Origin: Candidatus Thiodiazotropha sp.
GTDB lineage: Bacteria; Pseudomonadota; Gammaproteobacteria; Chromatiales; Chromatiaceae
NCBI GenBank assembly: GCA_040791665.1
Contig: JBFNNX010000026.1
Coordinates: 49,435-113,434 of the forward strand
DNA length: 64,000 bases
Direction: 5' to 3'
The translations under genes and the position numbers were made by a program. Below are positions 3-46,304 of this stretch, in pieces (the first letter of the stretch is position 1; every line of letters starts with the position of its first letter). The notes below the pieces were generated by a model. The model searched no databases, had not been told where the DNA came from, and saw only the letters and a program-made list of their open reading frames with translations.

Positions 3-248
3 GAACAACTGATGAAATATGCGAAAAAGTTCAAGGCGGGAGATCAGTGGCAGTTCTATACTGGCACGTATAATGACGTCGTGACTGTAGAAAAGGCGTT
101 CGACATTTTTCGTGGCTCAAAGATGAACCATGAACCTATCACTCTTATACGCAAAAAAGACAGACAATCCTGGGTCAGGATAAACGGGCTTGCAAGTGCT
201 GAAGATATCGTAAAGGAGTACCGCAAAGCAATTGCAGAAGGGAAGTGA
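3..248 (+). CDS. SCO1/SenC-family copper chaperone, C-terminal part (5' end lies outside the window)
   Basis: Frame is open from base 3 (EQLMKYAKKF...WQFYTG...KAFDIFRGSKMNHEPITL...WVRINGLASAEDIVKEY). This matches the C-terminal half of SCO proteins, including the conserved His. The CxxxC motif would be upstream. Confidence 0.7.
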   Translation, partial: EQLMKYAKKFKAGDQWQFYTGTYNDVVTVEKAFDIFRGSKMNHEPITLIRKKDRQSWVRINGLASAEDIVKEYRKAIAEGK

Positions 249-3322: not shown

Positions 3323-3358
3323 TTGCCGGTGAAATAACGACACTGCCTTGAAGAAGAT

Positions 3359-6268: not shown

Positions 6269-6775
6269 CGTTGTCTGGCGCCTGATGATGCGTTTAATTC
6301 CCCAGTATGGGAAATGATGGGTAAAAAGTGAATAAAATCATCTGATTATCAACTATATTCTTTAAAACCTCATACTTTAATGCGTGTTACTACTACCTGT
6401 TGATGAGGTATGTTACTACCATGATTGAACGGTTGAGGCAGTTAAGTCCTAATTGGCATTCTTGATAAAAACGAAGATCCGGCGCAATTCAGCATATTGA
6501 AAGAAGTCTGATGTAGCCGCTATAGGATTGATTATCCTATTTATTTATCAGGTAGTTCGCACCATTATGGTGTGATCCCCGGGGATGGTGATAGAGACAG
6601 TAGATCCCATGGTAGGGTTATTGTGCATAAAAGGTATGGAATCACCCCATCGATAAATACATCGTCCCATCAATCTCATTATTCGGGCAAATCTGCTGTG
6701 ATTGTATGAAACCATATTCAGCCTTACGTGCGTCGGATTGGGATATGGAAGTTTTGTGGAATTACTGGAAATCAC

Positions 6776-9004
6776 ATGAGCAAGAGTGAACACAATTTGC
6801 TGATTCGGCTATTGCCAATGGTATTCTCAATACTGTTGGTATCATGCGCACAGCAACCTGAAATCAATCAAACTTCCGATAGTGGCGGTGTCATAGCTCC
6901 CTATCCGCCGGAGAGACCGCCAGTCACTGTTTCTGGGGGTGACGATGAACAGGAGTTGGTGCTCTCACAGCAGACTGTAAAGGAACCCGAATTTTTTGTT
7001 CGCGAGGGAAGCGGCAAGTTCATTAACCCTGGACAGACAGGGAAAAAAACAACCCAACCTGCCCGTGGCGATATTACCCTCAACTTCGAGGGAGTGGATC
7101 TGCGTGAAGTGGTTAAGGTGATTTTCGAGGAGATACTGCGGGAAAACTACCTGATCGATGACAAGGTACAGGGCCAGGTAACCATTCATACGACCTACCC
7201 GGTCAGTACCGATGCGGTATTGCCGATTCTTGAGACCATTCTGCAGATGAACGGTGCCGTGATGGTGCGTAACGGTGCCCTCTATAAGATTCTGCCTGCG
7301 GCTGATCTGAAGAGCATGGCCCTGAAACCCTCGGTTGGTCAGGGTAAGGCGAAGATGAAAGCGGGTCAGGGTGTACAGATCGTACCACTGAGGTACATCA
7401 CAGCCGTTGAAATGAAGAAGGTTTTGGAAAGCTTTGCCTCCCAGGCAGAGCAGATTCGGGTGGACAAAGGCAGGAATCTGTTAATCCTTACGGGCTCCTA
7501 TCAACAGATCAACAATCTGTTGCAGACCATCGAAATGTTTGATGTGGATTGGCTCAGTGGTATGTCATTTGCGCTGATACCGCTGAAGGCCACTGACGCC
7601 AAAACCATTACCGAAGAACTCAAGCATCTGGTTGGGGATGGCGATGGATCGCCATTGGCGGGGATGATCAAGCTGATTCCCATCGATCGCCTGAATGCGG
7701 TCATGGTGATCAGCCAGCAGCCCAGATATATCAAGGATGTGCGCAGGTTGATCAGCCAGTTCGACCAGGGCAGCGATAAATCTCCCGACCGCCGGCTTTA
7801 CGTCTATCACTTGAAAAACGGAAAAGCGGAGAATATCGCCGCTATCCTGCAGAATATATTCGGTAATGAGGTATCTGCACCTTCCACTAGCGGCGGTTTG
7901 AGCAGCAGTGACCCTCTATTGCGCTCAAATGTCCGTTCCCCGACGGCAACCGGGATAGATTTGAAAAACAGCAATGCTGACAGCGAAGCCGTGCTCACCA
8001 AGGATCAGCCTGCAGCAGCCGCGGCAGTGGTCGCGAGCGCCGGTATGCCAAGGCAGGCGCCGGAAGGTCGATCTGATGCCACCGCGACCATCATCGCAGA
8101 TCCTGATAACAATGCCATCCTGGTGATGGCGAGCCCGAAGGATTATCAGAAAATCAAGGCGACTATCAGCCGCTTGGATGTTTCGCCCAAGCAGGTGCTT
8201 ATCGAAGCGACCATCGCCGAGGTGCAGTTGAGCGACAACCTGAGTTATGGCGTGCGTTGGTTCTTTAACGGTTCCACCGGAAGCGGTCGCCCTTATAAGG
8301 GTGCGTTGGGGAATCTTCCCGGGGATGTTTCGGGTGGTGACGGCTTTTCGCTGGGGCTGTTCAACAGCGCCAACGACCTGAAGGTTTTCTTCGATATTCT
8401 GGAAAACGAATCTTCTGTTAAATTTCTTTCCGCACCCCAGATCATGGTTATCGACAATCAGACGGCAAGCTTCCGAGTGGGCGACCAGATACCCATCGTG
8501 ACCCGTTCGTCGCAGAGTACCACCGATCCCGATGCACCGATCGTGTCAGAGGTGCAGTTCCGTGATACGGGTACACTGTTGCAGGTCACGCCACGCATCA
8601 ATGAAGGGGGCATGGTGACCCTGGAGATAAGCCAGGAGGTCAGTACCCCAGGTACCGCCCCGGCTATCGGCGGCGGTGGCAATGTCTCCATTTCACAGCG
8701 CACCATAGAGAGCACCGTCATCGTACACGATGGCCAGACAGTGGTACTGGGCGGTTTGATTCGCGAAAGCAGCTCAGGTGGCAAAACGGGGATACCCGGT
8801 TTGATGCATCTTCCCATCGTCGGCAACCTCTTCGGCAGCACCACCAAGGATGTGAGCCGTACCGAGTTGATCGTGACATTGACGCCAAAGGTGGTACGGA
8901 ACCCGCAAGAGGCCTACGATATATCTCAGGAACTGCGAGAAAAGATACGCGACGCCACACTGTTTCATGATGACTTTCAGCGGCGTCGGGCATCCAGCAA
9001 ATAA
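6776..9004 (+). CDS. gspD: Type II secretion secretin, lipoprotein type
   Basis: LLVSC lipobox after the ATG at 6776, N0 domain ITLNFEGVDLREVV, N domains, secretin domain QVLIEATIAEV ... PIVGNLFGST ... RTELIVTLTPKVV. Confidence 0.93.
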   Translation: MSKSEHNLLIRLLPMVFSILLVSCAQQPEINQTSDSGGVIAPYPPERPPVTVSGGDDEQELVLSQQTVKEPEFFVREGSGKFINPGQTGKKTTQPARGDITLNFEGVDLREVVKVIFEEILRENYLIDDKVQGQVTIHTTYPVSTDAVLPILETILQMNGAVMVRNGALYKILPAADLKSMALKPSVGQGKAKMKAGQGVQIVPLRYITAVEMKKVLESFASQAEQIRVDKGRNLLILTGSYQQINNLLQTIEMFDVDWLSGMSFALIPLKATDAKTITEELKHLVGDGDGSPLAGMIKLIPIDRLNAVMVISQQPRYIKDVRRLISQFDQGSDKSPDRRLYVYHLKNGKAENIAAILQNIFGNEVSAPSTSGGLSSSDPLLRSNVRSPTATGIDLKNSNADSEAVLTKDQPAAAAAVVASAGMPRQAPEGRSDATATIIADPDNNAILVMASPKDYQKIKATISRLDVSPKQVLIEATIAEVQLSDNLSYGVRWFFNGSTGSGRPYKGALGNLPGDVSGGDGFSLGLFNSANDLKVFFDILENESSVKFLSAPQIMVIDNQTASFRVGDQIPIVTRSSQSTTDPDAPIVSEVQFRDTGTLLQVTPRINEGGMVTLEISQEVSTPGTAPAIGGGGNVSISQRTIESTVIVHDGQTVVLGGLIRESSSGGKTGIPGLMHLPIVGNLFGSTTKDVSRTELIVTLTPKVVRNPQEAYDISQELREKIRDATLFHDDFQRRRASSK

Positions 9005-10884: not shown

Positions 10885-12105
10885 ATGGCCTCGTTCCTAT
10901 ATAAGGCTGTCGATACGGACGGTAAGGTGGTGGAGGGAGAACTGCAGGCAGTCAGCCGCGATCACGCAGTCAACCAGATCCACCTCCAAGGACAGGTGCC
11001 GATCCGTGTCGAAGCGAATCAGCAGAAGGGCGGACGTTCGGCGCACAGAAGTTTTCAGCGCAAATCCGTCTCTGCTGAGCAGATTGCATCATTTACCCGG
11101 GAATTGGCGACATTGCTGAAGTCGGGACAACCCCTTGATGGCGCACTTTCGATCCTTGTTTCCATCGCAGGCGAGGATTCCCTCTTTAGCCAGCATCTGA
11201 CCAGTATCCGGGATAGCCTGAAGAGCGGCAACTCGTTTGCCGACGCTCTGGCAAAAGAGGAAGGGCTGTTCAATAATTTCTATGTGCAGATGGTAAGGGC
11301 TGGGGAGTCCGGCGGTGCATTGGAGAGTGTCCTCGCCAGGTTGGCGCTCCATCTGGAACGTGCCAAGGAGGTACGCAGTTCACTGATATCGGCGTTGATC
11401 TATCCGGCGATCCTGCTGTTTGTCGCGATTACCTCGATTCTGATCCTGCTGACCTATGTGATTCCCCAGTTCAGCGAACTGTTCAGTGACATGGGACAGG
11501 CACTACCCATGTCGACACGCATCACCATGGGCATTGCCGGATTTCTGCAGGATTACGGTTGGGTGCTGGCCCTGGCGGTGATATTGCTGATCTTCTATTT
11601 CAAGTGGCAGATGAGCCGCAAGGCGAGCGCCAAGCGATGGCATGCCAGACTGCTTGTGTTTCCCGTTATAGGACCCATCATCAGGCAAGTTGAAGCGGCG
11701 CGCTTCTGCCGGACCCTCGGAACCTTGCTTGAGAATGGCGTGCCATTGCTCAGATCCGTGGCCATTGTGAAAGATACCATCGGCAATCATGTTATTGCCG
11801 ATGGCATGGATCAGGTCGTAACCCATCTGAAATCTGGGCGAAGGTTGGCCGATCCGCTGACAGAGTATGCCCAGTTCCCGCCATTCGCCTTGCAGATGAT
11901 CCGGGTGGGTGAGGAGTCGGGACAGTTGGAACCGATGTTGATGCAGACAGCCGAGATCCTTGACCAGGAGACACAAACCCTGATCAAGCGTGCATTGAGT
12001 CTGGTGGAGCCGGTGATGATTCTGGTGCTAGGCCTGATCATCGCGGGTGTGGTGATGTCGATCCTGGTCGCAATCCTGGGTGTGAATTCGCTGGTTGCGC
12101 TATGA
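10885..12105 (+). CDS. gspF: Type II secretion inner-membrane platform protein
   Basis: FTRELATLLKSG, MVRAGESGG, YPAILL, GEESGQL motifs; follows gspE. Confidence 0.93.
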   Translation: MASFLYKAVDTDGKVVEGELQAVSRDHAVNQIHLQGQVPIRVEANQQKGGRSAHRSFQRKSVSAEQIASFTRELATLLKSGQPLDGALSILVSIAGEDSLFSQHLTSIRDSLKSGNSFADALAKEEGLFNNFYVQMVRAGESGGALESVLARLALHLERAKEVRSSLISALIYPAILLFVAITSILILLTYVIPQFSELFSDMGQALPMSTRITMGIAGFLQDYGWVLALAVILLIFYFKWQMSRKASAKRWHARLLVFPVIGPIIRQVEAARFCRTLGTLLENGVPLLRSVAIVKDTIGNHVIADGMDQVVTHLKSGRRLADPLTEYAQFPPFALQMIRVGEESGQLEPMLMQTAEILDQETQTLIKRALSLVEPVMILVLGLIIAGVVMSILVAILGVNSLVAL

Positions 12106-12112
12106 GGGACCG

Positions 12113-12616
12113 ATGAACGTAAAACTCAGTGACAAGCGGACATCTAAAGGTTTTACCCTGATCGAAGTGATGTTGACACTTGTGGTATTGGCTCTGCTGG
12201 TCAGCCTCACTCCACCGCTGTTCGAGAAGGCATTCCCCTCATTGAAACTCAAGGCGGCGACAAGGGATCTGGCCCAGGAGATCCGCTATATTCAACAGAC
12301 CGCAATTCTCACCGGCGTGCCTTCGAAGGTGCGGTTCGATATAGATAACAACGCCTACCAAAGCGATCACGTCAACAGTGGCGAAGTAAGGCACCTGCCT
12401 GAAGGATTGCAATTTACCCTATACAAATCCGCCACAACGACATTGGGTGAACCTGTTCTGGTATTTGAGTTCTTTCCGGATGGCAGCTCGACTGGAGGTA
12501 TTTTGATTCTCGATAACGGCGGACAGCGCTTTGCCATTGCTGTGGACTGGCTGACAAGCCGTGTCCGGGTCTTAGATCCCGAAGAGCTTAAAGCGAATGC
12601 CCCATACCAAGTCTGA
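12113..12616 (+). CDS. gspH: Minor pseudopilin GspH/FimT-like
   Basis: G-FTLIEVM prepilin motif. The body is XpsH-like (..ATRDLAQEIRY.., FFPDGSSTGG) and lacks GspG hallmarks. Confidence 0.8.
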   Translation: MNVKLSDKRTSKGFTLIEVMLTLVVLALLVSLTPPLFEKAFPSLKLKAATRDLAQEIRYIQQTAILTGVPSKVRFDIDNNAYQSDHVNSGEVRHLPEGLQFTLYKSATTTLGEPVLVFEFFPDGSSTGGILILDNGGQRFAIAVDWLTSRVRVLDPEELKANAPYQV

Positions 12617-12995
12617 AGGCATGTCGCTGATCGAGGTGCTGGTGGCGTTTGTCATTCTCAGCATGACCATGAGTGTGATTCTCAGGATCAATGCCACAAC
12701 CCTGCGTAACCACCAGGTTACGACCGACTATCTCAAGGCTGTCCGGATCGCCGAATCAAGGCTTGATCAAATGGCTGTCGATCGAATCAACAGCAACCTG
12801 AATGAACGGGGGAGTGAACAGGGAGGTTTCAGATGGCACTATCAGCGGCAGCCCTACAGCGGCTGGTCAGTTGAGAAAAAACTGGCGGTGCCTCTGCTGC
12901 CAGTTGAAGAGATGCTGACAATCCAATGGGAGGCGCCCGGTGGTGAAAGAAGGCTCACATTTTCACGTATAGGTCTTGTCCATGGCAAACCCTAA
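12597..12995 (+). CDS. gspI: Minor pseudopilin
   Basis: G-MSLIEVLVAF prepilin motif, 132 aa, operon position. Confidence 0.8.
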   Translation: MPHTKSEGMSLIEVLVAFVILSMTMSVILRINATTLRNHQVTTDYLKAVRIAESRLDQMAVDRINSNLNERGSEQGGFRWHYQRQPYSGWSVEKKLAVPLLPVEEMLTIQWEAPGGERRLTFSRIGLVHGKP

Positions 12996-29275: not shown

Positions 29276-29914
29276 CTATTCAGCCAACAGCTGTTGTGCG
29301 CTTCCGGTTTCCAAGCCGAACTCCTCCTCGACCATCTTCAGCCAGCGCTCCCTCTTGAAGGTCTTTTCATCCGGTACTTTTCTGTGTACCAGGTTGATAT
29401 GACAGTCGATGCAGCTTTTTCCTTTAGTCTCTTCGCGGTGTATGGAATTGGTGTCGGCACGTCTGCCTTGAATCGCTTCCAACACATGACATCGCTTGCA
29501 GGTGGCTGAGTCCCTCGCCTTGAACCATTTCCTGGCTTCAAAGGCGGCGTCTGGAAGATGCAGTGTGTTGATCACGGGATCGTCGTAATCCGGTCCAAAG
29601 AGCTTTCCCGAGATTTGGGTCAGGAGATCCTTCCCCCCCAGGAAGTGATCCCAGGTGGCGGCGAAAACGCCTTCGGAGACGTGACAGTCCCCGCAGGATG
29701 CGCGCACACCGGATATGGGTTTATAGTGTGTCGAGAGCCGGTAGGTTTCCGCCGCGATCTCCATGGAGTGACAAGTGGTGCAAAACGCTTCTGAACTGGT
29801 GAGCTCGTCAAATTCAATCAGAAACAGTAGAAATCCGATTCCGGCTATACCACCGATGACAAGTGCAACGAGTACCTGCCGATTTACGAAGTAGGGCAGT
29901 TTCCATTTACTCAT
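29276..29914 (-). CDS. NapC/NirT/cM552-family membrane tetraheme cytochrome c
   Basis: N-terminal TM; CTTCH, CGDCH, CKRCH, CIDCH. Confidence 0.9.
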   Translation of the reverse strand: MSKWKLPYFVNRQVLVALVIGGIAGIGFLLFLIEFDELTSSEAFCTTCHSMEIAAETYRLSTHYKPISGVRASCGDCHVSEGVFAATWDHFLGGKDLLTQISGKLFGPDYDDPVINTLHLPDAAFEARKWFKARDSATCKRCHVLEAIQGRRADTNSIHREETKGKSCIDCHINLVHRKVPDEKTFKRERWLKMVEEEFGLETGSAQQLLAE

Positions 29915-35552: not shown

Positions 35553-36941
35553 CTACTTATCTATTCCGTAGCGTTTCATCTTCTGCCATAAGTTTTTACG
35601 GGAAATGCCCAAGGAATCTGCTGTCTGGTTGATTTTGCCGCTATTTTCCGCCAATGCCCTGACAATTGACTTTCTTTCAGCTTCTTCAATAGTCTCTTTA
35701 AGTGTGGTTGTGTCGTGATCGTGGGCGCTGTTGTCCGTGATAGACAGGTCGTTTTTGCTGATCCAAGGTCCATCGCACAGGGCGACAGCTCTTTCGATGA
35801 TATTTTTAAGTTCACGAACATTTCCAGGGAATGACATGGATTGAAGATAGAGTTCAGCCTCCTTCGACAAACCTTTGACGCCCCCTTTTTTACATTGTCC
35901 AAGCTGGCTGACGAACTGCCTTGCAAGATAGACGATATCCTCCCTGCGTTGACGCAGTGGTGGGATATCGATATGGATTACATTGAGACGCCAGTAGAGA
36001 TCCGATCTGAATTCGTTTTTTTCAATAGCTACATCGAGGTTGGCCTGGGTTGCGGCGATTACCCTTACATCAAGCGGGATTGAAACAGATCCGCCAACAC
36101 GTTCAAACTCCCTCTCCTGCAGCACTCTCAGCAGTTTTACCTGTATGTCAGACGATACTTCCGCAATTTCATCAAGAAAGATGGTGCCCCCTTGAGCCTG
36201 CTCAAAACGCCCTTTTCGTTGATGTGTCGCTCCTGTAAAGGAGCCCTTTTCATGACCGAAGAGCTCACTTTCGATCAGTGTGGAAGGTAGGGCGGCACAG
36301 TTTACACTTACCATGGGGCCTTGTGACCTGAGACTGTTGTTGTGGATCAGGTTTGCAACGACTTCCTTGCCAACCCCGGACTCTCCTGTAAGCAATACTG
36401 AACTGTCACTCTCTCTGAGACGTGCCACCAGTCTCTCGATCTTTCGCATAGCGTTGCTTTTTCCCAAACAACCGCTACCCGGTTTGAGATGATCAATTGC
36501 CGCGCTCGAGCCTTTGGTCGTCAATTGGTTGTCAGAGATACAAGAGAGCTGATGAATTACTTTCTTTATAAAATCATTGATGTCAAATGGTTTTGTAAGA
36601 TAATCAAAAGCGCCGGCTTTAACTGTGGCGACTGCGTCCGATATATCGCCATAGGCCGTCATGAGGATGACTGGTATGCCTGGAAAATTGCTTGAGATAT
36701 CTGTAAAGAGTTCGATCCCTGTGCCATCCGGTAGACGGATATCGGTTACCACTAGGTCAATATCACCTTTTTCCAGCTCTTTTCTTGCGCTCGCGGTATC
36801 GCTTACCGCACGCACGGGAATCGATTCCATGCGTAACCTGTCAACAAGAGAGATTTGCATGATTTCATCATCTTCAACCAGCAATAGACATAAGTCTTTG
36901 AATCTACCCCTATCCATTGTGTAATCGATACTATTCTGCAT
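35553..36941 (-). CDS. Sigma-54-dependent response regulator (NtrC family, AioR-like)
   Basis: Receiver (VEDD, DIRLPD, KPF), AAA+ (GESGVGKE, ELFGHEKGSFTGA, FLDEI), Fis-type HTH. Confidence 0.95.
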   Translation of the reverse strand: MQNSIDYTMDRGRFKDLCLLLVEDDEIMQISLVDRLRMESIPVRAVSDTASARKELEKGDIDLVVTDIRLPDGTGIELFTDISSNFPGIPVILMTAYGDISDAVATVKAGAFDYLTKPFDINDFIKKVIHQLSCISDNQLTTKGSSAAIDHLKPGSGCLGKSNAMRKIERLVARLRESDSSVLLTGESGVGKEVVANLIHNNSLRSQGPMVSVNCAALPSTLIESELFGHEKGSFTGATHQRKGRFEQAQGGTIFLDEIAEVSSDIQVKLLRVLQEREFERVGGSVSIPLDVRVIAATQANLDVAIEKNEFRSDLYWRLNVIHIDIPPLRQRREDIVYLARQFVSQLGQCKKGGVKGLSKEAELYLQSMSFPGNVRELKNIIERAVALCDGPWISKNDLSITDNSAHDHDTTTLKETIEEAERKSIVRALAENSGKINQTADSLGISRKNLWQKMKRYGIDK

Positions 36942-38425
36942 TAGGCCGCCTGTCTGTTGATTACAGGCAGTTCGATGAGGAAAGTCGTGCCTTTTCCTAC
37001 CTCGCTCTCAACCTCGATAATACCTTGCATATTCTGAACCAGACGATAGACGACCCAAAGCCCCAATCCCGTGCCATTGGGTTTGGTCGTAAAGAAAGGA
37101 TCGAACATTTGGTTTCTTATATTTGAGGCAACACCGGGGCCATTGTCACTGACTTTGATTACGAGAAGACTTCCTTCCTGATGCATGTTGAAAGCAATGG
37201 TTCCATTCTCGGGAATGATTTCAACGGCGTTCTTCAGCAAATTGCAGATAATCTGTTCGGTCTTTCCCGGAATACAGGTATCTCTATCGGTCTTATTGTT
37301 CCAGAATATTTTGATATCTCTTTCACCTATTTCAGCCAGGATCAAATCATGAAGCTTGTCGACCTGTTCAATATTTATCATTTCATCACTCTCCTCGTTC
37401 TTGAGCCCAACGAGCAGGTTGTGGACAATATCCTTGATCCGATGCAGACCCTGGTCAATCACCGGTAGATAACGATCGATCAACTCCTTGTCGTTTGGAT
37501 GCTGACGTAGCGTATCTATGCAGTTTAATAGCCCTGCCAGAGGATTGTTTACCTCATGTGCCACACCTGCGGTTATTCTTCCTAGGGCAACCAACTTCTC
37601 GCTCATTGCGATCTCCTCCTCGAGCATCTTTTTTTCCGCAAGTTCAGACATGATTTGATTGAAGGTCACACTGAGCCTCCCTATTTCATCCCCCTCTTTC
37701 ACCGGTATTGGAGAAAAATCTGTCATCTCTCCACGCCCAACCGCCTCAAGTCCATGAGTTATTGCAGTCAAAGGTCCGACCACCCGCCTGGATACTATGG
37801 TGCCCAGCAGGCTTCCGATGATGACAAAGAGCAATATTGAAAGGAGAACGATTACAGTTGTCGACTTTGCCTTTTCAAACAGACTGGCGACAGAGAGGCG
37901 AACCCGAACTACTCCAAGGTATTTTTGATCTGAAAACAGAGGTACGACACCTTCCTGGAATCCATCCCTGGAAAAGAAATCCCCACTACTCAATACAGTC
38001 GGGGTTCTTGCGGCCATCGCCTGATTGGCTATCGTTTTATCAGCTTCATTTTCTGGAGAGAATACGAGGCCTATCGGGTGCTTCGCAGGATGAAGGTGCG
38101 CCTGAACTACACCTTCTGCATCCAATATCATCGCATCTATAATTTCATGTTCGCTTCTGGCCCCAGGTCCCTTAGACGCCATATTCTTGAGACTGAGGTA
38201 AAGAGACCAGTAGTCCTTACGCAGCATTGCCTTTGGTGCAGTGATTGAAATGGATTCTGATAGCAGCAGCGCTTTCTCACCCAGGTCATTTTGAAATCGA
38301 TTCCAGTCCTGGAGAACCATGAGGCCTCCGATGAGGAATCCGACACTGGTGACAACGGCCGTTATGGTAAGGGATAACTTTATCGCCAATGGCCAGGATT
38401 TTGGATTAATCATGGGCATTTGCAT
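36941..38425 (-). CDS. HAMP sensor histidine kinase (AioS-like)
   Basis: Two TM, HAMP (GDEIGRL), AHEVNNPL, NLLKNA, DNGPG, FFTTKPNGTGLGL. Confidence 0.93.
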   Translation of the reverse strand: MQMPMINPKSWPLAIKLSLTITAVVTSVGFLIGGLMVLQDWNRFQNDLGEKALLLSESISITAPKAMLRKDYWSLYLSLKNMASKGPGARSEHEIIDAMILDAEGVVQAHLHPAKHPIGLVFSPENEADKTIANQAMAARTPTVLSSGDFFSRDGFQEGVVPLFSDQKYLGVVRVRLSVASLFEKAKSTTVIVLLSILLFVIIGSLLGTIVSRRVVGPLTAITHGLEAVGRGEMTDFSPIPVKEGDEIGRLSVTFNQIMSELAEKKMLEEEIAMSEKLVALGRITAGVAHEVNNPLAGLLNCIDTLRQHPNDKELIDRYLPVIDQGLHRIKDIVHNLLVGLKNEESDEMINIEQVDKLHDLILAEIGERDIKIFWNNKTDRDTCIPGKTEQIICNLLKNAVEIIPENGTIAFNMHQEGSLLVIKVSDNGPGVASNIRNQMFDPFFTTKPNGTGLGLWVVYRLVQNMQGIIEVESEVGKGTTFLIELPVINRQAA

Positions 38426-38434
38426 TCTAAAATA

Positions 38435-39304
38435 TTAATCGCTTTGTACTACGGAGTACCTGGGGTCAGCTCTTTGAACTGTATTTTCCAAAGTGCGGAT
38501 TTCGTTGAACAGCGAATCAGAATAGTGACCAAACCCATCCAGTTTGAGCCGGTCGAGCAGTTCCTTGCCGGTTAAATCCTTATCCATGTTCTCAAGTGTC
38601 TGCTTCATCTTTTTTACTATGTTGTCATCTATGCCTAAACGGTAAACAATAGGCGGAAAACCAAAGCTTGGAGACTTCTTTATTATCCGGGTTTTTTCAG
38701 TAATGTCTGGTTTGAAGACGGCAATGTACTCCCAGATATACGAGTCTACGGCTCCGCCATCTGCAACCTGCTCGGAAACGGCTTGCACCGTCTCAGCGTG
38801 ATTGAAGGTAAAAAAGGTTTCTCGGAAAAAGCTCTCGGGTTTCTCTCCTTTTTTTACCACCAAGGCAAGAGGATAGAGGAAGCCTGAATTCGAGTCAGGG
38901 TCAGAGAAGGCAAAACTTTTTCCTTTCAAGTCGCTAAAGCGTTTATAGGGACTGCTGTGATGGACAATAATATAAGAGTAATAATGCGGTGATCCCCGGT
39001 AGACAGGTACTGTCAGGAGCTGAAGTGATTCCGGTTCTCTTGCCTGGATGTAAGGATAACCGCATATCCATGCGAATTCGATACCACCTGATTCCAATAG
39101 GTCCATCACCTCTCGATAGGACTTTCTCTGCACAAACTCGACCTTCCGGCCTATTTTGTGTTCCAGGTATTGACTCCACTGGTCCAGAAATCTGAGGTTT
39201 TCAGTAAGTACCACAGCCGTCAAGCCAAAGCGGATAGGTGTATCCATATTGGCGGCATAAAGCGGGGTAATCCAGAAGAGCAATAATAAAAGGGTCAATC
39301 GCAC
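38435..39304 (-). CDS. PhnD-fold periplasmic oxyanion-binding protein, AioX/ArxX-like
   Basis: Signal peptide; FAWICGYPY, FAFSDPDSNSG, FTFNH, VDSYIW motifs as in AioX-type sensors; co-transcribed with the kinase and regulator, with no ABC permease or ATPase nearby. Confidence 0.8.
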   Translation of the reverse strand: MRLTLLLLLFWITPLYAANMDTPIRFGLTAVVLTENLRFLDQWSQYLEHKIGRKVEFVQRKSYREVMDLLESGGIEFAWICGYPYIQAREPESLQLLTVPVYRGSPHYYSYIIVHHSSPYKRFSDLKGKSFAFSDPDSNSGFLYPLALVVKKGEKPESFFRETFFTFNHAETVQAVSEQVADGGAVDSYIWEYIAVFKPDITEKTRIIKKSPSFGFPPIVYRLGIDDNIVKKMKQTLENMDKDLTGKELLDRLKLDGFGHYSDSLFNEIRTLENTVQRADPRYSVVQSD

Positions 39305-39793: not shown

Positions 39794-39810
39794 TTGGAAC
39801 GACTCTTGCT
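39794..39810 (+). promoter_or_regulatory. Sigma-54 (-24/-12) promoter of the cytochrome/Mo-enzyme operon
   Basis: TTGGAACGACTCTTGCT has GG-N10-GC with a close consensus match, 67 bp before the ATG at 39878. Confidence 0.8.
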
Positions 39811-39877: not shown

Positions 39878-41398
39878 ATGAACAGTGGCGCTGGAGTTCA
39901 ATTTAGAGTTACCTGGCGACAGATGGCACTGATTTGCGCGGGAACGGTTCTTTTCCTGTTAACGGCCTGGGGCGGTGTCGAGTATTATACATCGCAGTCA
40001 TCGTTTTGCGGTGGCAGCTGCCACACCATGACAGAGCAGTATGAAGCCTGGAAGTCAAACTATCACTACAAGAGCAACAATCCGGATGGTATGCAAGCAG
40101 AGTGCGTCGATTGCCATTTTCTTCCCGGCAAGAAGCATTCTCTGAAGGCCAAGTACGAAGGATTACGCCACCTTGCAGCCTACCTTTATGATCCGGATGC
40201 GCCACTGCCCATACGTCCGGTCATCAAGGATGGCGCTTGCCTACAGTCTGGCTGTCATGAGCGTGAGAAACTGGCGGTAGTAGAGATACAGTATACTGAG
40301 AGAGTCCGCTTCAAACACGAGGTTCACTTTAGTGACAAGGCTCTTGATGGTCACCAAATCACCTGCGATACCTGCCACTTCAAGACAACGAAGAACAAGC
40401 ATTTCGAGGTGCCTGAGGATATCTGTTTCCTATGTCACCTTAAACTGGATAAACCCACTCTTGATAAAGCGGAGATGGCCAATGGAGAGATTAAGAAAAT
40501 CACCTTCGTCAACAAGCCAGCCATCGATTTCAACCAAGGGGTATCCCGCTGTGATATCTGCCACACGATCCCAACAAGATCACTTCAAAGCCAGTTGCAG
40601 GTAGGAGACCCTGCCAGCACCAAGAAACCGATCACCCATCAGACAATACAGGAATCAGGAGTTGCTTGTGAGAGTTGCCACTTCGAGGTGGTGAGCGGCG
40701 AGGGCGAGATTGATACCGGAAACGTCGTCTCGAATGGCTGTCTTACTTGCCATAACAGAAGTCAGACGTTACTGGCAACTGCAGATGACCGTGAACTCAT
40801 GCATGGCAAGCATGTGCCGAACAAGGCTGACTGTTTCGATTGTCACAGTGTGATCGAACACAAGAACAGAACTGATCATCTTGATTTTGTACGCAATGAC
40901 TGTCAGCTCTGTCATGTCGACCAGCACAAGTACCAAAGGCTATTACTTTCAGGCTCTCCTGTTGATGAGGACATCTCGGGTGACCCGCATCTTATGTACG
41001 AAGTCAACACAAACTGCATGGGCTGTCATCTCAAGAAGACGCTGAGTAATGGGCATGATGTTCGGACAGCATCAGGTGATACCTGTGCTGCCTGCCATAC
41101 GGAGCAGCACAGGAAAATGCTCAGTGACTGGAAGAGTTTACTGACCAATGAGGTAGCAGATGTGGAAGAGGTCGAGAAGGAAGCCACGCAACTCTTCGCC
41201 GAACTGAAGGGTAGGTTGGACAATGAGAAATTGACTCAAGCGGAGGAAATGCTCGCCAAGGGAGGCGAACTTCTCAATATTGTACGTGTTGGTAACGGAG
41301 TACATAACAAAAAGTACGCAGTAAACATTCTCGACGGTGCATTCGCAAATTTCGAAGACACCATTGAGCTATTGGAAAACGCAACTAACAGTGAATGA
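39878..41398 (+). CDS. Membrane-anchored dodecaheme cytochrome c with NapC-like N-terminus
   Basis: One N-terminal TM; ten CxxCH plus CGGSCH (CX3CH) and CLQSGCH (CX4CH); helical C-terminus with GVHN. Confidence 0.85.
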   Translation: MNSGAGVQFRVTWRQMALICAGTVLFLLTAWGGVEYYTSQSSFCGGSCHTMTEQYEAWKSNYHYKSNNPDGMQAECVDCHFLPGKKHSLKAKYEGLRHLAAYLYDPDAPLPIRPVIKDGACLQSGCHEREKLAVVEIQYTERVRFKHEVHFSDKALDGHQITCDTCHFKTTKNKHFEVPEDICFLCHLKLDKPTLDKAEMANGEIKKITFVNKPAIDFNQGVSRCDICHTIPTRSLQSQLQVGDPASTKKPITHQTIQESGVACESCHFEVVSGEGEIDTGNVVSNGCLTCHNRSQTLLATADDRELMHGKHVPNKADCFDCHSVIEHKNRTDHLDFVRNDCQLCHVDQHKYQRLLLSGSPVDEDISGDPHLMYEVNTNCMGCHLKKTLSNGHDVRTASGDTCAACHTEQHRKMLSDWKSLLTNEVADVEEVEKEATQLFAELKGRLDNEKLTQAEEMLAKGGELLNIVRVGNGVHNKKYAVNILDGAFANFEDTIELLENATNSE

Positions 41399-41460
41399 TC
41401 TTTCAACAAACACACAATCAACAGTAGCGGAGGATGAGAAGATGCGTAGGAGAATACGAT

Positions 41461-42312
41461 ATGAGTGACAACAAAACACCAGACATCAACCGTCGCAAAT
41501 TCCTGAGTGGTGTAGGCACAGCCGCGGTAGGCGCTGCGGCCTTGGCGACACCGAGGGTAAGTCTTGAAGCAGCCCAATCAAAAGCACCTCGATGGGCGAT
41601 GGTCATGGACCTGAGGCGCTGCATAGGCTGCAGGGCCTGTACAGTCGCCTGCAAATCGGAAAACAACGTTTCGTTGGGCCGCTTCCGGGCAGTCATCCAA
41701 GAGAAAACCATGGGCACCTTTCCAAAGACCAAAAAGGAATTCTTACCCCTGATGTGCAATCACTGCGAGGGCAATGAGAAAGATGGCGTTCCTCCTTGTG
41801 TGAAAATATGTCCGGAGTATCCAGGCAAACGGGCCAAGTTCAAAACATCTGATGGCAAAACAATACGCTATCGCACAGGTGCGACCTATAAGCGTCCCGA
41901 TGGCATGATCCTGATAGACAAAGAAAAATGTATCGGCTGCGGTAAGTGTATCGATGCCTGCCCGTACGGGGTGCGTTCATTTGATCCCTTTGTAAAAGCG
42001 GGTGGTGACCAGACAAAGCAGGCAGCGGACAAATGCGATCTGTGTGCGCATCGTGTCGATAACGGGATCGAACCCTCCTGCGTCAACACTTGCCAGGGTC
42101 GCGCACGTATTTTCGGAGACCTGAACGATCCGAGCAGCGAAGTCTCCAAGCTTGTAAAAGAGCACAACCTGGCCAAGGCAGACAATGTACTGCTTCCGGA
42201 AGAGGGAACCAATCCACATGTGTTCTACATCGATCCCGACAACATGTTGAAAACCCTCTATACACAGCGAAAGAAGGGCAAGCTGGACCACTTTGTGGAC
42301 CAGATTCCATAG
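41461..42312 (+). CDS. Tat-exported 4x[4Fe-4S] electron-transfer subunit (TtrB/PsrB/DmsB family)
   Basis: NRRKFL Tat motif; DLRRCIGCRACTVAC, CNHC...CVKIC, CIGCGKCIDAC, CDLC...CVNTC. Confidence 0.92.
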   Translation: MSDNKTPDINRRKFLSGVGTAAVGAAALATPRVSLEAAQSKAPRWAMVMDLRRCIGCRACTVACKSENNVSLGRFRAVIQEKTMGTFPKTKKEFLPLMCNHCEGNEKDGVPPCVKICPEYPGKRAKFKTSDGKTIRYRTGATYKRPDGMILIDKEKCIGCGKCIDACPYGVRSFDPFVKAGGDQTKQAADKCDLCAHRVDNGIEPSCVNTCQGRARIFGDLNDPSSEVSKLVKEHNLAKADNVLLPEEGTNPHVFYIDPDNMLKTLYTQRKKGKLDHFVDQIP

Positions 42313-42345: not shown

Positions 42346-44871
42346 ATGAAAAAGTTAAATCGTCGTGATTTCATGAAATTGACTGCCGGCAGCGGCTGTG
42401 CATTGGCGACTGGATTGGGCTGCAGTCAGAGCGCATTTGCCGGATCGCTTAAACTGCAGGCAGGCGGCAAGGATTTTTCACCTACAACAGGTAAGGAGAG
42501 AAAGGCAATCCCCACAGCCTGCTGGCAGTGTGTAACCCGAGACTCCATGATCGGTTATGTGGAGGATGGGCGCCTGGTAAAGCTCGAGGGACATCCCGAT
42601 TCCATACGCACACTCGGCAAACTCTGTGCCAAGGGACAGGCGGGTATCAACCAGGTCTATTTCCCGGACCGGATCCTGCACCCAATGAAACGCGTAGGCA
42701 AACGTGGCGAGCACAAGTGGAAACGAATTTCCTGGGACGAGGCCCTTGATCTGGTTGTATCCAAGCTGAAACCTCTGCGTGATGCGGGTACCCCAGAACT
42801 GTTTATGTATCAGTACGGAAGACACAAGGCGTCTCAGGCCGCGACCATGTACGACTTCATGCAGGCCTATGGCACTGGCACCATCGGTAATCACACCTCT
42901 GTCTGCGAGGCGGCAAAATGGGTGGGACAAGAGAGTCTTTGGGGCGGCATGTATGACAACTGGGATTATGACAAAACCGATTACGTGGTGATTTTCGGCA
43001 GCAATCAGTTCGAGACCCATACCAATCACATTCCGACCGCCCAGCGTCTGATTCGGGCCAAGGTTGATCGTGGTGTACCCCTATACGTATTCGATGTGCG
43101 CCTGACAAATACCGCAGCCAAGGCCGATCAGTGGGTGCCGATCAATGTGGGACATGACGGACTGGTGATGCTGGCCATGTGCAATGTCATCATGAACGAG
43201 AAACTCTACAGGAAGGACCACTTCAAATTCATGCGTGTCACCGAAGACTACAAGGCGACTGTCGATGAGAAGATTGCAGCCGTGAAGAAAAATGTCGCCA
43301 AGTACACCCCTGAGTTTGCAGAGAAACACAGTGGCGTGCCTGCCGATACCATACGCAAGATCGCTCGCGGATTCGCAAAAGCCAAATCGGCCTGCCTGGT
43401 TACCTACCGTGGAACGGTAATGCACTATCACGGCGCAGATCAGGAACGGGCGGCAATGCTGTTGTCGGCCATTACCAACAATCTCGATCGTCCGGGTGGT
43501 CGTGTCATGGGTGTTGGAGCAGGCTGGAAACATCCTTCCTCCCCCAAGGCAAAGGTTCACAAAACCCTCCACGTCAAGGACGGATTTCCGGGTGAAGCGG
43601 CCTACCCGACTCACCATGTAAGTCACCAGGTACTTCCGATGATCAAAGATGGCAACGCGGGTCGACCGAAGGTCTACTGGTGGAGTTGCTACAACCCAGG
43701 GTTCATCAATGGCGACAACAAGGAACTCCAGTCGATCCTGAAAGATGAGAGCATCATCCCATTCCTCATTACAACAACCATCGTCTACGACGAGTCCTCT
43801 CAGTATGCAGACCTGATCCTGCCCGACGTCACCTACCTGGAACGCTGGGACTGGGAGGACATGGTGTCGGCAAATCAGATCGCAGAATTCTATATCCGGC
43901 AGCCATTGGTGAAACCGTTGGGAGAATCACGTTGCCAGGGCGATGTCTGGCCCGAGCTGGCCAAGCGCATGGGCTTTGAACTGGCATACTCCAGCAAGGA
44001 GGACTTCGTACGCCAGTCCTGCGAGATGACGCCCGGCGTGCGTGAGGCCGGGGGCTTCGAGTATATGAAGAAGCACGGTGTTTGGCACGATCCGAACGCC
44101 AAGCCCAACTACGGCTTCTATGAGAACAAGGTGGACGTATCCGGCGATGGCGTGATTCTCGACGAGAAGACCGGAGTCTACTGGAACTGGAAAAAGGCGG
44201 GTGTCAACAGCGAAGCCGAGGCCAAGCGTCAGGGGTATCTGGGTACAAAAGGCGCGAAAAAGGCGTATGTCGCGCAAAACATCGATGGCGCGGCATACAA
44301 GGCCTACCCGCCCAATACCAAGTTCGTCAAGGCGGGATATCTGGACTTCTATTCAGATAATTTCGTCAAAAAGGGCTTTCCGGCATTCCCATCCTATACA
44401 CCGATTCCTGAACACCAGAAGATGGCGGATGATGAGCTGAATCTCACCACCTACAAGGTGGCGGTACATACCCATTCAAGGACCGCACACTGCAAGTGGC
44501 TCACCGAGATCAAGCACGATAATCCCGGCTGGATCAATACCAAGACGGCTGAAGCGCGCGGTATTAAGAACGGTGACAAGATCAGGGTCTATAACAGCCT
44601 GGGTGAGATCACCACCACAGCCTATGTCACCGAGGGTATTATTCCGGGCGTGATCGCCATATCCCATCACCTGGGTCGCAAGCACTCGGGGGTCTATGGA
44701 TCGGGCAAGCGTTCTCCCACGCCAGGTGGTGCCACAGCTGATCCGGATGTGAAGAATATATGGTGGAAAAAACATGGCACTCATCCCAATACCATCATCC
44801 CCAACTCTTCAGATCCTATCAGCGGCACACAGAGGTGGATGGATACCGTCGTCAGGGTAGCCAAGGCATAA
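42346..44871 (+). CDS. Tat-exported Mo/W-bisMGD oxidoreductase catalytic subunit (Psr/Phs/Ttr/Arr branch of the DMSO reductase family), substrate unknown
   Basis: NRRDFM Tat motif; FS0 region CWQCVTRD...KLCAKG; putative Mo-ligand Cys in GNHTSVCEAAK; LILPDVTYLERW; C-terminal MGD-binding domain. Confidence 0.9.
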   Translation: MKKLNRRDFMKLTAGSGCALATGLGCSQSAFAGSLKLQAGGKDFSPTTGKERKAIPTACWQCVTRDSMIGYVEDGRLVKLEGHPDSIRTLGKLCAKGQAGINQVYFPDRILHPMKRVGKRGEHKWKRISWDEALDLVVSKLKPLRDAGTPELFMYQYGRHKASQAATMYDFMQAYGTGTIGNHTSVCEAAKWVGQESLWGGMYDNWDYDKTDYVVIFGSNQFETHTNHIPTAQRLIRAKVDRGVPLYVFDVRLTNTAAKADQWVPINVGHDGLVMLAMCNVIMNEKLYRKDHFKFMRVTEDYKATVDEKIAAVKKNVAKYTPEFAEKHSGVPADTIRKIARGFAKAKSACLVTYRGTVMHYHGADQERAAMLLSAITNNLDRPGGRVMGVGAGWKHPSSPKAKVHKTLHVKDGFPGEAAYPTHHVSHQVLPMIKDGNAGRPKVYWWSCYNPGFINGDNKELQSILKDESIIPFLITTTIVYDESSQYADLILPDVTYLERWDWEDMVSANQIAEFYIRQPLVKPLGESRCQGDVWPELAKRMGFELAYSSKEDFVRQSCEMTPGVREAGGFEYMKKHGVWHDPNAKPNYGFYENKVDVSGDGVILDEKTGVYWNWKKAGVNSEAEAKRQGYLGTKGAKKAYVAQNIDGAAYKAYPPNTKFVKAGYLDFYSDNFVKKGFPAFPSYTPIPEHQKMADDELNLTTYKVAVHTHSRTAHCKWLTEIKHDNPGWINTKTAEARGIKNGDKIRVYNSLGEITTTAYVTEGIIPGVIAISHHLGRKHSGVYGSGKRSPTPGGATADPDVKNIWWKKHGTHPNTIIPNSSDPISGTQRWMDTVVRVAKA

Positions 44872-44900: not shown

Positions 44901-45554
44901 ATGGGAACCGACTGGAATAAAATGGCCGATAACGCCAAAACAAGAAGTGACACGTATGGGTTATTGACCCTGGTCTTTCGGCAGGAGCCCAGCGAAGCCT
45001 TCATCAACGAACTGAGGGGGCCCCGCTTGGCGGGGGCCTTCTCGGACATGGAGCTGGACATGGGTGGCTCTTTTTACAGCGAACCCGTATCAACCATAGC
45101 CGATCAACTTGCGCTTGAATTTTCGCGCCTGTTCATAGGTCCTGGTCGGCATATTTCTGCCCATGAATCGATTTTCACTGAAGTGGATGGTGACTCAGGC
45201 GGTTTGTGGGGCGCCAGAACAGTTGAAGTGAAGAAGTTCATCGAGACAACCGGACTTGATTACGCTTCCCAGTTCACGGGCCTGCCTGATCATATCAGCG
45301 TTGAACTTGAGTTCATGCAGAAACTGACCCAGTGGGAATCCGCCAAGTGGATGGAGATGGATCGCAAAAGCGCGGAGTACTGCCTGTCAATTCAGCGTAT
45401 GTTCTTGCAACAGCACATACTGGGTTGGATACCCAAGTTCTGTGATGCGGTGATATTTCAGGCCGACATGCCTTTTTACCGTGAACTGGCTGGATTGATG
45501 AAAAACTTCCTTGAGTTCGAACAGCAGAGCCTGGCAATCGAATCAGCCGCTTAG
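44901..45554 (+). CDS. TorD/DmsD-family redox enzyme maturation chaperone
   Basis: EFSRLFIGPG, AHESIF, LPDHISVELEFM, FLQQHILGWIP. Confidence 0.92.
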   Translation: MGTDWNKMADNAKTRSDTYGLLTLVFRQEPSEAFINELRGPRLAGAFSDMELDMGGSFYSEPVSTIADQLALEFSRLFIGPGRHISAHESIFTEVDGDSGGLWGARTVEVKKFIETTGLDYASQFTGLPDHISVELEFMQKLTQWESAKWMEMDRKSAEYCLSIQRMFLQQHILGWIPKFCDAVIFQADMPFYRELAGLMKNFLEFEQQSLAIESAA

Positions 45555-45632: not shown

Positions 45633-46304
45633 TCAGGGTCTTCTTTTTGAGCCGTACCGATTATGAAGAGTGATCTCTTGATCGGGCATCATACCTAGTT
45701 CCCTGCCTTCCTTGATGGCGAAGCCGATAGGTGCCCCAAGATTCATCCGGTAGGCCGCCCACATGGTCCCAAGCAGTTCCGCTCTCGGAGCATAGACCAA
45801 CAGCATTCCATGGCTGGCATCTACAACGTGTTGAGTGAAATTCTCCACCTGCTCCAGACTCGGTAGGTTGCCGTCAACCGGGATGCTTATATAGCGCATA
45901 CCCAGCGCTTCGGTCTCCAGTTGATGCAGGCGAGCAGTTTTTTTCGGTGTGCCAAGATCGATTACCGTTTTAAATCCAAACGCCTCCAGCTCAGCAATAC
46001 GATTGAGCGGCCGCCCCATGGTGGCCTGCAGATAAGGTATGGCGCGGCCTGGGTCAGGTATTGCAATGCCGTAACCCATCCGTCCCGGAAGCTTTGACGA
46101 GTGATGGTTAAGCATTTGGGGTAACACCCTTCCGTCCGGGGTAGTTGCTACTTCGCTATCATCCCTATTTACTTCACCATCACCCCACCAACCACATGCA
46201 CCGACCTGTCCCGGAGACATTAAAATGATGCATAACAGAAATAGGGTGGACGAAGCTATAGTGTTACATGGTTTTACTGCACTGAACATGGGATTGAGTC
46301 TCAA
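45633..46304 (-). CDS. Exported protein with a DUF442/PTP-like domain lacking the catalytic Cys
   Basis: Hydrophobic leader, CGWWGDGE, GFKTVIDL, GMRYISIPV; LLVYAPRAE stands where HCxxGxR is expected. Confidence 0.55.
   Translation of the reverse strand: MRLNPMFSAVKPCNTIASSTLFLLCIILMSPGQVGACGWWGDGEVNRDDSEVATTPDGRVLPQMLNHHSSKLPGRMGYGIAIPDPGRAIPYLQATMGRPLNRIAELEAFGFKTVIDLGTPKKTARLHQLETEALGMRYISIPVDGNLPSLEQVENFTQHVVDASHGMLLVYAPRAELLGTMWAAYRMNLGAPIGFAIKEGRELGMMPDQEITLHNRYGSKRRP

Follow-up and report, generated by a model that had tools for sequence, protein, structure and literature searches.

A 12-heme NapC-headed cytochrome travels with a periplasmic molybdoenzyme and is its probable membrane partner in Candidatus Thiodiazotropha

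Introduction

Periplasmic molybdoenzymes of the Psr/Arr/Ttr type are commonly presented as ABC complexes in which a heme-free NrfD-type subunit serves as the membrane anchor. The present work concerns a four-gene operon of Candidatus Thiodiazotropha sp. in which a multiheme cytochrome appears to stand in the place of this anchor. The operon lies in a stretch of 64,000 nucleotides (contig JBFNNX010000026.1, positions 49,435 to 113,434), and the whole of this stretch is called the window below. Its first gene encodes a cytochrome with 12 heme motifs and a NapC-like head, and it is followed by the genes of an iron-sulfur (FeS) subunit, a molybdenum (Mo) subunit and a chaperone. The cytochrome is likely to be the dedicated membrane quinone-coupling subunit and the heme wire of this periplasmic molybdoenzyme.

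The Psr, Phs, Ttr and Arr enzymes normally use the heme-free NrfD-type subunit, and cytochromes of the NapC/NirT type couple TorA, DorA, NapAB and, via CymA, the ArrAB enzyme of Shewanella to quinones (PMC2500031). The locus was first interpreted from its letters alone (hereafter the sequence-only reading), and its architecture was then regarded as atypical of such complexes. It is indeed unusual for Psr/Arr-type enzymes, but it is not without precedent, because Mo enzymes with a partner of the NapC type have been described before (TorC, DorC, NapC and CymA-ArrAB).

The described systems resemble the locus in different respects. In the TorC-TorA-TorD system (trimethylamine N-oxide reductase of E. 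coli) and in DorC-DorA, the operon is likewise opened by the gene of a tethered, NapC/NirT-headed multiheme cytochrome, an extra C-terminal heme domain feeds a periplasmic enzyme with Mo-bis-pyranopterin guanine dinucleotide (Mo-bisPGD), and a TorD-type chaperone gene comes last. TorC, however, binds 5 hemes instead of 12, an FeS subunit is missing from the Tor system, and the Mo subunit of the present locus, unlike TorA, is Psr/Arr-like. In Shewanella sp. ANA-3, the soluble AB enzyme is also coupled by a NapC/NirT cytochrome, CymA, and not by an NrfD-type ArrC (PMC2500031). Whereas CymA is a general-purpose tetraheme hub, encoded apart from the many reductases that it serves, the cytochrome described here is dedicated, encoded in the operon, equipped with 12 hemes and grouped by the type of enzyme that it accompanies. 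With NrfH of the NrfHA complex (PDB 2j7a) it shares the single-helix anchor, the tetraheme head and C-H-x-M at heme 1, and the whole protein, with its weakly NrfA-like C-terminal module, looks like NrfH and an NrfA-like scaffold in one chain. It differs from NrfH in the CX3CH and CX4CH motifs at hemes 1 and 3, in the lack of a CxxCK heme and in having a molybdoenzyme as partner.

The PsrABC, PhsABC, ArrABC and ArxABC complexes have a periplasm-facing Mo-bisPGD A subunit, exported by twin-arginine translocation (Tat), and a four-cluster FeS B subunit, as does the present system, and the arx clusters share with it a divergently transcribed triad of the AioXSR/ArxXSR type. Unlike these complexes, it lacks an NrfD-type C subunit and has the gene order cytochrome-B-A-D, and its A subunit falls under every equivalog cut-off and carries Asp at the third FS0 position. 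The sensor, the kinase, the regulator and the -24/-12 pattern of the AioXSR/ArxXSR-regulated arsenic enzymes are present at the locus, whereas its Mo subunit does not have the identity of AioA, ArxA or ArrA. A survey of arx clusters mentions no cytochrome anchor (PMC6549141). In the literature searched, no description of this cassette was found, nor one of the combination of a dedicated, operon-encoded 12-heme NapC-headed cytochrome, conserved CX3CH and CX4CH motifs, an NrfA-like tail, service to Psr/Arr-type AB enzymes and AioXSR-type control.

Results

The cytochrome is most similar to a protein of Ca. Thiodiazotropha endolucinida (91% identity). Ten of its heme motifs are CxxCH and begin at C76, C163, C183, C225, C264, C288, C319, C342, C380 and C403, while heme 1 is bound by CX3CH (C44-GGS-C48-H49, CGGSCH) and heme 3 by CX4CH (C121-LQSG-C126-H127, CLQSGCH). 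The motifs take up 24 of the 25 cysteines of the protein, and the remaining one, C20, lies inside the membrane helix. By our own arithmetic, a protein of this composition would contain about 0.07 CxxCH by chance. Chance clustering was rejected as an explanation, given the 24 cysteines within motifs and the invariance of the motifs among homologues. In the AlphaFold model, the N-terminal helix found by the hydropathy scan (Table 1) covers residues 13-38, and R10 and R14 ahead of it suggest an N-in, C-out topology. The helix does not appear to be a cleaved signal peptide; this possibility was rejected because there is no AxA site and because the family offers the precedent of an uncleaved anchor. 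Motif count, hydropathy and the PF03264 match thus confirm what the sequence-only reading had described, a 12-heme NapC-headed cytochrome with a single transmembrane segment, ten CxxCH motifs and two longer ones. Its claim that this gene opens the operon and that its product alone is membrane-bound also held; the hydropathy scan revealed no hydrophobic segment of at least 1.6 in the FeS, Mo or chaperone proteins.

Conservation was determined in an alignment of 120 cytochromes drawn from two clades, that of the window protein and its sister clade. All 12 heme motifs are invariant in these sequences, and so are nine histidines outside the motifs (H63, H147, H150, H175, H254, H309, H312, H350 and H476) together with D118, G474 and N477; M51 and H328 are conserved in at least 90%. 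This ligand pattern fits about ten bis-His hemes and an NrfH-type heme 1 with C-H-x-M, and the one remaining heme would have a sixth ligand other than a conserved histidine. The sequence at heme 1 reads C44-GGS-C48-H49-T-M51. It has, in the clade of the window, one inter-cysteine residue more than C-x-x-C-H-x-M, the signature of heme 1 with its methionine ligand in the NrfH of the NrfHA structure. In two alphaproteobacterial orthologues (L078 and L083), heme 3 is shortened to CX3CH, which gives ten CxxCH and two CX3CH motifs; therefore, the spacing of this motif is not absolutely fixed. Selenocysteine or internal stops were considered for two flagged homologues and rejected, as both cases proved to be natural stop codons.

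The head was recognised by the NapC/NirT model PF03264 at residues 18-101 (58.6 bits, cut-off 24.1; profile positions 11-93 of 174). The NrfH model TIGR03153 extended over the first four motifs, at residues 18-169, with 51.1 bits against a cut-off of 134.2, and the TorC models NF011606 (36 bits, cut-off 455) and TIGR02162 (34 bits, cut-off 478) matched the N-terminal region only, both below their cut-offs. The four motifs of the head lie at residues 44-167, and the CX3CH and CX4CH among them are both conserved in the clade. Sequence and profile searches of the PDB with the whole cytochrome, its head and two family profiles as queries returned nothing significant. The protein could be only a membrane-tethered electron carrier, comparable to cytochrome cy, which serves bc1, a cbb3 oxidase or soluble cytochromes and performs no quinone chemistry. 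Such a role would agree with the non-canonical CX3CH of heme 1, with scores of the head below the NCBIfam cut-offs for NrfH, NapC and TorC, with the additional multiheme cytochrome gene that follows the cassette at two loci (L178 and L179), and with the Aio-type arsenite oxidases, which hand their electrons to c-type cytochromes and not to quinones. It is nevertheless rather unlikely, because the Pfam match over the helix and the heme 1-2 region is above its cut-off, the NrfH-type CHxM and D118 are conserved across the 120 sequences, and the conserved cassette encodes no other quinone-reactive subunit.

The fold of the cytochrome was predicted with AlphaFold from the 120-sequence alignment (pLDDT 87, pTM 0.79), as an earlier model from 46 sequences had reached a pLDDT of only 60. 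The top 23 matches found by Foldseek in the PDB were all NrfA, octaheme nitrite reductase (ONR), OcwA or MccA. These matches were weak (E about 5e-3 or worse, 150-170 columns at about 6 Å, TM about 0.24), and the first, weaker model gave the same picture. For the NrfA/octaheme (MCC) superfamily, the sequence profile yielded nothing significant. The model may thus lend limited fold-level support to an NrfA-like C-terminus. The helical bundle with GVHN, which had been noticed from the letters as reminiscent of the C-termini of NrfA and HAO, was confirmed by the model as a bundle, while its resemblance to NrfA is backed only weakly by Foldseek. The similarity of the C-terminal module to the enzymes NrfA, ONR and MccA raises the question of whether the cytochrome is itself a catalytic NrfH-NrfA-like fusion that acts on a small molecule at a heme without a distal histidine, the Mo enzyme being a neighbour or a second activity. 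The finding of only about ten conserved distal histidines for 12 hemes would be in line with it, as would the orphan clades without an adjacent Mo enzyme, some of which still stand beside sensor-kinase-regulator genes. This explanation is improbable. The motif count over the 506 residues found neither CxxCK nor another known signature of a catalytic heme. The Foldseek matches are weak (E at least 2e-3, TM about 0.24, about 150-170 columns), the FeS-Mo-chaperone synteny is strict in the clade of the window, and the precedent of NrfH already explains a heme 1 without a histidine ligand.

The association with the Mo enzyme was followed in a scan of one genome per species, which gave 379 relatives of the cytochrome. 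The best 80 of the 379, which are 47-91% identical to the window protein, were examined, and at all 80 loci FeS, Mo and chaperone genes come after that of the cytochrome as far as the downstream DNA is available. The sole rearrangement was found at L076, where the Mo and chaperone genes are upstream on the opposite strand and the FeS gene still follows the cytochrome. The sensor-kinase-regulator triad is nearby in almost all of these 80 loci. In the reverse direction, three homologues of the Mo subunit (83, 59 and 59% identity) have the cytochrome gene upstream. Across the best 80 loci, the cytochrome diverges faster than the Mo subunit (47-91% against 66-97% identity). The carriers belong to the Sedimenticolaceae, including an assembly of Candidatus Endoriftia persephone, to Motiliproteus, to many Rhodospirillales, Hyphomicrobiales and Rhodobacterales, and comprise one metagenome-assembled genome (MAG) each of Verrucomicrobiota and Nitrospiraceae. 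Candidate carriers that can be cultivated are Sedimenticola strains and Magnetovibrio sp. PR-2, the latter with a Mo subunit of 79% identity. In the taxonomic family of the window itself, the cytochrome is present in 4 of 80 genera. Therefore, the cassette belongs to the accessory gene content and is transferred horizontally.

For a sister clade, whose 12-heme proteins share 30-46% identity with the window protein, 57 metagenome loci were sampled, 15 of which were too short to judge. Partner genes were found in 38 of the 42 informative loci: 19 had a Mo gene of the same clade, 8 one classed in another Mo clade, 3 a matching FeS gene before the contig end, and 8 an FeS or chaperone gene only. 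Homologues that occur mostly without the Mo enzyme, which would have spoken against the sequence-only reading, were thus encountered neither among the genomes nor in the sister loci nor in the reverse look-ups. In six of the eight loci with the other clade, the Mo gene encodes one Arr/Arx-type enzyme (67-87% identity). In a FastTree phylogeny of 153 cytochromes (SH-like support), the window protein is placed within a clade of 99 sequences (support 100), of which 94 have the same Mo clade adjacent and 4 come from loci that are too short. Seven of the eight cytochromes whose Mo partner is of the other (non-MoX) kind form one clade (support 99). Exactly 12 motifs are present in 150 of 152 family members. 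A wider, exhaustive HMMER search returned 906 cluster representatives, 183 of them with E < 1e-30. Among the 150 matches listed, CX4CH occurs in nearly all full-length proteins and the C-terminal G-x-H-N-x-x-[YF] in most, with heme counts from 12 to about 30.

The Arr/Arx-type Mo subunit is encoded directly after the sister cytochrome at L153 (7764-13616), L144, L118, L137, L095 and L116. The full-length subunits of L153 and L144 align with the ArrA model over its entire length (about 1020 bits, cut-off 1600), and the enzyme of L153 keeps the canonical CxxCxxxC. An ArrB-like FeS gene and a chaperone or chaperone-like gene come next at the longer loci L153, L144, L118 and L137, and genes of the sensor triad are upstream at L153 and L144 and, in part, at L137. 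Cassettes such as that of L153 would represent an Arr or Arx enzyme without ArrC or ArxC.

The quinol dehydrogenase proper might also be encoded elsewhere, whether it is of the NrfD type or a general tetraheme cytochrome resembling NapC or CymA, so that the 12-heme protein would only relay electrons. The bacterial genome that contains the window (99% complete) was searched for such anchors. It contains four NrfD-family genes, all on contigs other than that of the cytochrome operon, and at least two ordinary NapC-type genes, including the window open reading frame (ORF) 29276-29914; moreover, the ArrAB enzyme of Shewanella relies on the unlinked CymA (PMC2500031). Each NrfD gene, however, directly adjoins an FeS gene of its own, and two of them also have their own Mo subunit (tblastn). 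No NrfD-type gene occurs in the 64-kb window, the operon or the conserved cassette. A distal NrfD-type protein as the real anchor, the other finding that would have told against the sequence-only reading, is thus not indicated. The cassette travels as a unit across classes and phyla and is patchy in its own family, in which only 4 of 80 genera have it; therefore, it has to be self-sufficient. A dehydrogenase encoded elsewhere is for these reasons very improbable. A second Mo-FeS-chaperone set is present elsewhere in the genome (C10:97878-101914), its Mo subunit having 30% identity.

The features of the locus are collected in Table 1. The four genes of the operon are separated by gaps of 30-36 nt. 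The sigma-54-type element extends from 83 to 68 nt ahead of the start codon of the cytochrome. Comparable elements, found by a regular expression and thus as pattern matches only, precede the cytochrome gene by 32-195 nt at 22 of the 153 related loci. The top NCBIfam matches of the FeS subunit were TtrB, DsrO and ArrB, all below cut-off. The Mo subunit also remained below all named equivalog cut-offs (PhsA, 334 against 694; ArrA, 167 against 1600; TtrA, 115 against 1750; AioA, 30 against 359), and its nearest PDB matches were PsrA (1e-50) and ArrA (2e-43). Its FS0 motif has Asp at the position of the third cysteine, where Psr/Arr-type enzymes carry Cys. The periplasmic sensor protein matched AioX (6esk, E 5e-61) and ArrX (6x6b, 3e-41) in the PDB.

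Table 1. Features of the cytochrome operon and its surroundings (positions in the window; residues refer to the protein named).
Feature	Residues	Positions	Strand	Basis or detail
Sigma-54-dependent response regulator (NtrC type), divergent		35553..36941	-	
Membrane histidine kinase, divergent		36941..38425	-	HAMP, HisKA, HATPase
AioX-type periplasmic oxyanion-binding sensor protein, divergent		38435..39304	-	PDB matches
Sigma-54-type -24/-12 element, TGGAAC-N5-TTGCT		39795..39810	+	read directly
12-heme cytochrome gene, operon gene 1		39878..41398	+	single ORF, 506 aa
Cytochrome: single N-terminal transmembrane helix	16-35	39923..39982	+	hydropathy scan, KD19 1.96
Cytochrome: NapC/NirT/NrfH-like tetraheme head	18-169	39929..40384	+	PF03264, TIGR03153
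Cytochrome: heme 1, CX3CH-x-M	44-51	40007-40030	+	
Cytochrome: heme 2, CxxCH	76-80			
Cytochrome: heme 3, CX4CH	121-127	40238-40258	+	
Cytochrome: heme 4, CxxCH	163-167			
Cytochrome: eight more CxxCH motifs	183-407	40424..41098	+	generic c3/c7/MtrC-like Pfam matches
Cytochrome: C-terminal three-helix bundle	409-505	41102..41392	+	AlphaFold pLDDT 94-98
Cytochrome: G-V-H-N-K-K-Y motif	G474, V, H476, N477	41297-41308	+	
Four-cluster FeS subunit		41434..42312	+	292 aa, own Tat signal RRKFL
Mo-bisPGD catalytic subunit		42346..44871	+	841 aa, Tat signal RRDFM
Mo subunit: FS0 motif C59-W-Q-C62-V-T-R-D66	59-66	42520-42543		
TorD/NarJ-type Tat-proofreading chaperone		44901..45554	+	PF02613, 79 bits
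Secreted/lipoprotein-like protein, DSP-phosphatase fold		45633..46304	-	PF22741, 223 aa

Discussion

The anatomy of the cytochrome and its constant company suggest how the system may work. The N-terminal helix would hold the protein at the inner membrane, and all hemes would lie on the periplasmic side. Hemes 1-4 would form a divergent head of the NapC/NirT/NrfH type, in which heme 1, at the membrane surface, may exchange electrons with the quinone pool. The eight hemes that follow, most of them presumably bis-His, would constitute a wire that ends in the NrfA-like helical module, and this module may dock the Tat-exported FeS subunit, which would in turn feed the Mo-bisPGD subunit. In this way, the cytochrome would do the job of the heme-free NrfD-type proteins PsrC, ArrC and TtrC without proton pumping, as NrfH, CymA and TorC do.

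Several observations weigh against this proposal. Twelve hemes exceed the need of a simple wire, and the head passes the cut-off of Pfam but none of the NCBIfam cut-offs for NrfH, NapC and TorC; NrfH was also not retrieved with the head by the sequence and profile searches of the PDB. At four of the 57 sister-clade loci, one flank of at least 3 kb is devoid of partner genes, and some cytochromes of this clade have no Mo enzyme within 4-10 kb. Furthermore, the genome encodes the other NapC-type proteins mentioned above, at least two of them ordinary.

The direction of electron flow is a separate matter. The sequence-only reading had proposed a quinol dehydrogenase that also serves as the heme wire to the AB dimer. 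The coupling role it implies is supported, while the direction may be the reverse, i.e., reduction of quinone. The genome contains UbiA (340 bits, cut-off 275), and for the menaquinone route neither a MenB above its cut-off nor MqnA/D of the futalosine pathway was found in it. Therefore, the cell is probably ubiquinone-only. By our own estimate from standard potentials, arsenate reduction driven by ubiquinol would be thermodynamically poor, whereas oxidation of arsenite to ubiquinone would be feasible. The sensor protein, which is nearer to the arsenite-binding AioX than to the arsenate-binding ArrX, points to a substrate of the arsenic type or a similar oxyanion, and the sister cytochromes that apparently serve enzymes of the Arr/Arx family point to the same, as does the gene of a phosphate-selective porin that is inserted into the cassette at a Nitrospinae locus (L096). 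Because of the AioX-type sensor, the Arr/Arx-linked sisters and the apparently ubiquinone-only genome, it seems at least as likely that arsenite, or a comparable metalloid oxyanion in reduced form, is oxidised with transfer of the electrons to ubiquinone as that quinol drives a reduction.

A broader and more doubtful interpretation may be put forward tentatively. The 12-heme family might be the membrane module that marks a widespread and hitherto unrecognised group of respiratory enzymes for arsenic or other metalloids and, in ubiquinone-only sulfur oxidisers, might belong to a third type of arsenite oxidase, in which the fusion replaces the NrfD anchors. If so, electrons would pass via the heme chain into the quinone pool in the symbionts of clams and tubeworms, and an NrfH-plus-NrfA-like fusion would have replaced NrfD anchors both in enzymes of the window type and in true Arr/Arx enzymes.

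The likely role of the cytochrome as quinone-coupling subunit is of wider importance. It would represent a conserved alternative to the NrfD anchor, a 12-heme NapC-headed cytochrome which moves with its enzyme between phyla and accompanies at least two enzyme clades, an uncharacterised one with Asp at FS0 and an Arr/Arx-like one, almost always under a sensor of the arsenite type. Since an NrfH-type site alone conserves no energy, the energetics would differ from those of NrfD-anchored enzymes. The carriers include symbionts of lucinid clams and of Riftia as well as bacteria from oxygen-minimum zones, and the family thus offers a handle on a respiratory activity of marine sulfur bacteria that is probably linked to metalloids. 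Annotation pipelines that seek arrC, arxC or psrC will miss or misread such systems.

Further observations

The gene of the PF22741 protein is a conserved neighbour of that of the chaperone, at more than 30 related loci from Gammaproteobacteria, Alphaproteobacteria and one Verrucomicrobiota MAG. It has a lipoprotein-like N-terminus (…VGAC) and no obvious HCx5R active site, and it may belong to the module as its eighth component, possibly with a role in binding oxyanions. At the Nitrospinae-labelled locus L096, a gene for a phosphate-selective porin O/P (11465-12652) stands between the cytochrome and FeS genes; this insertion hints at a phosphate-like anionic substrate. A further multiheme cytochrome gene comes after the cassette at L178 and L179. 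At L179 it is c552/c554-like and lies past the chaperone gene, and at L178 (10364-16529, Deltaproteobacteria-labelled) a separate module comes after the cassette and encodes a multiheme cytochrome, an FeS protein, a split NrfD and a cytochrome of the c552/NrfA-like kind.

Among the orphan members of the family, L090 combines the cytochrome with nothing but the sensor triad, at L093 and L094 the cytochrome stands by itself within 10 kb, and L104 (810-4149) has two 12-heme cytochromes in tandem. As no Mo enzyme is near these orphans, members of the family can function on their own or with different partners. At L093 (9643-9981) and L104 (2324-2659), a conserved, small hydrophobic protein of some 110 aa is encoded ahead of the orphan sister-clade cytochrome. 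The two copies share 49% identity, probably have three transmembrane segments and show no Pfam match. Downstream of the orphan 12-heme cytochrome of L108, a methyltransferase of the Methyltransf_31/UbiE type is encoded (2207-3034, minus strand). This domain type is shared with the arsenite methyltransferases ArsM. Finally, a 728-aa relative is encoded at L092 (JGI Ga0118657_10000012, 3169-8187). It has 25 motif matches, which correspond to about 21 hemes since the motif counts overlap, and its gene directly follows those of a Rieske protein and a cytochrome b, among multiheme and cytochrome b fusion proteins. This cluster looks like one of the extracellular-electron-transfer type that uses the NapC-headed scaffold.

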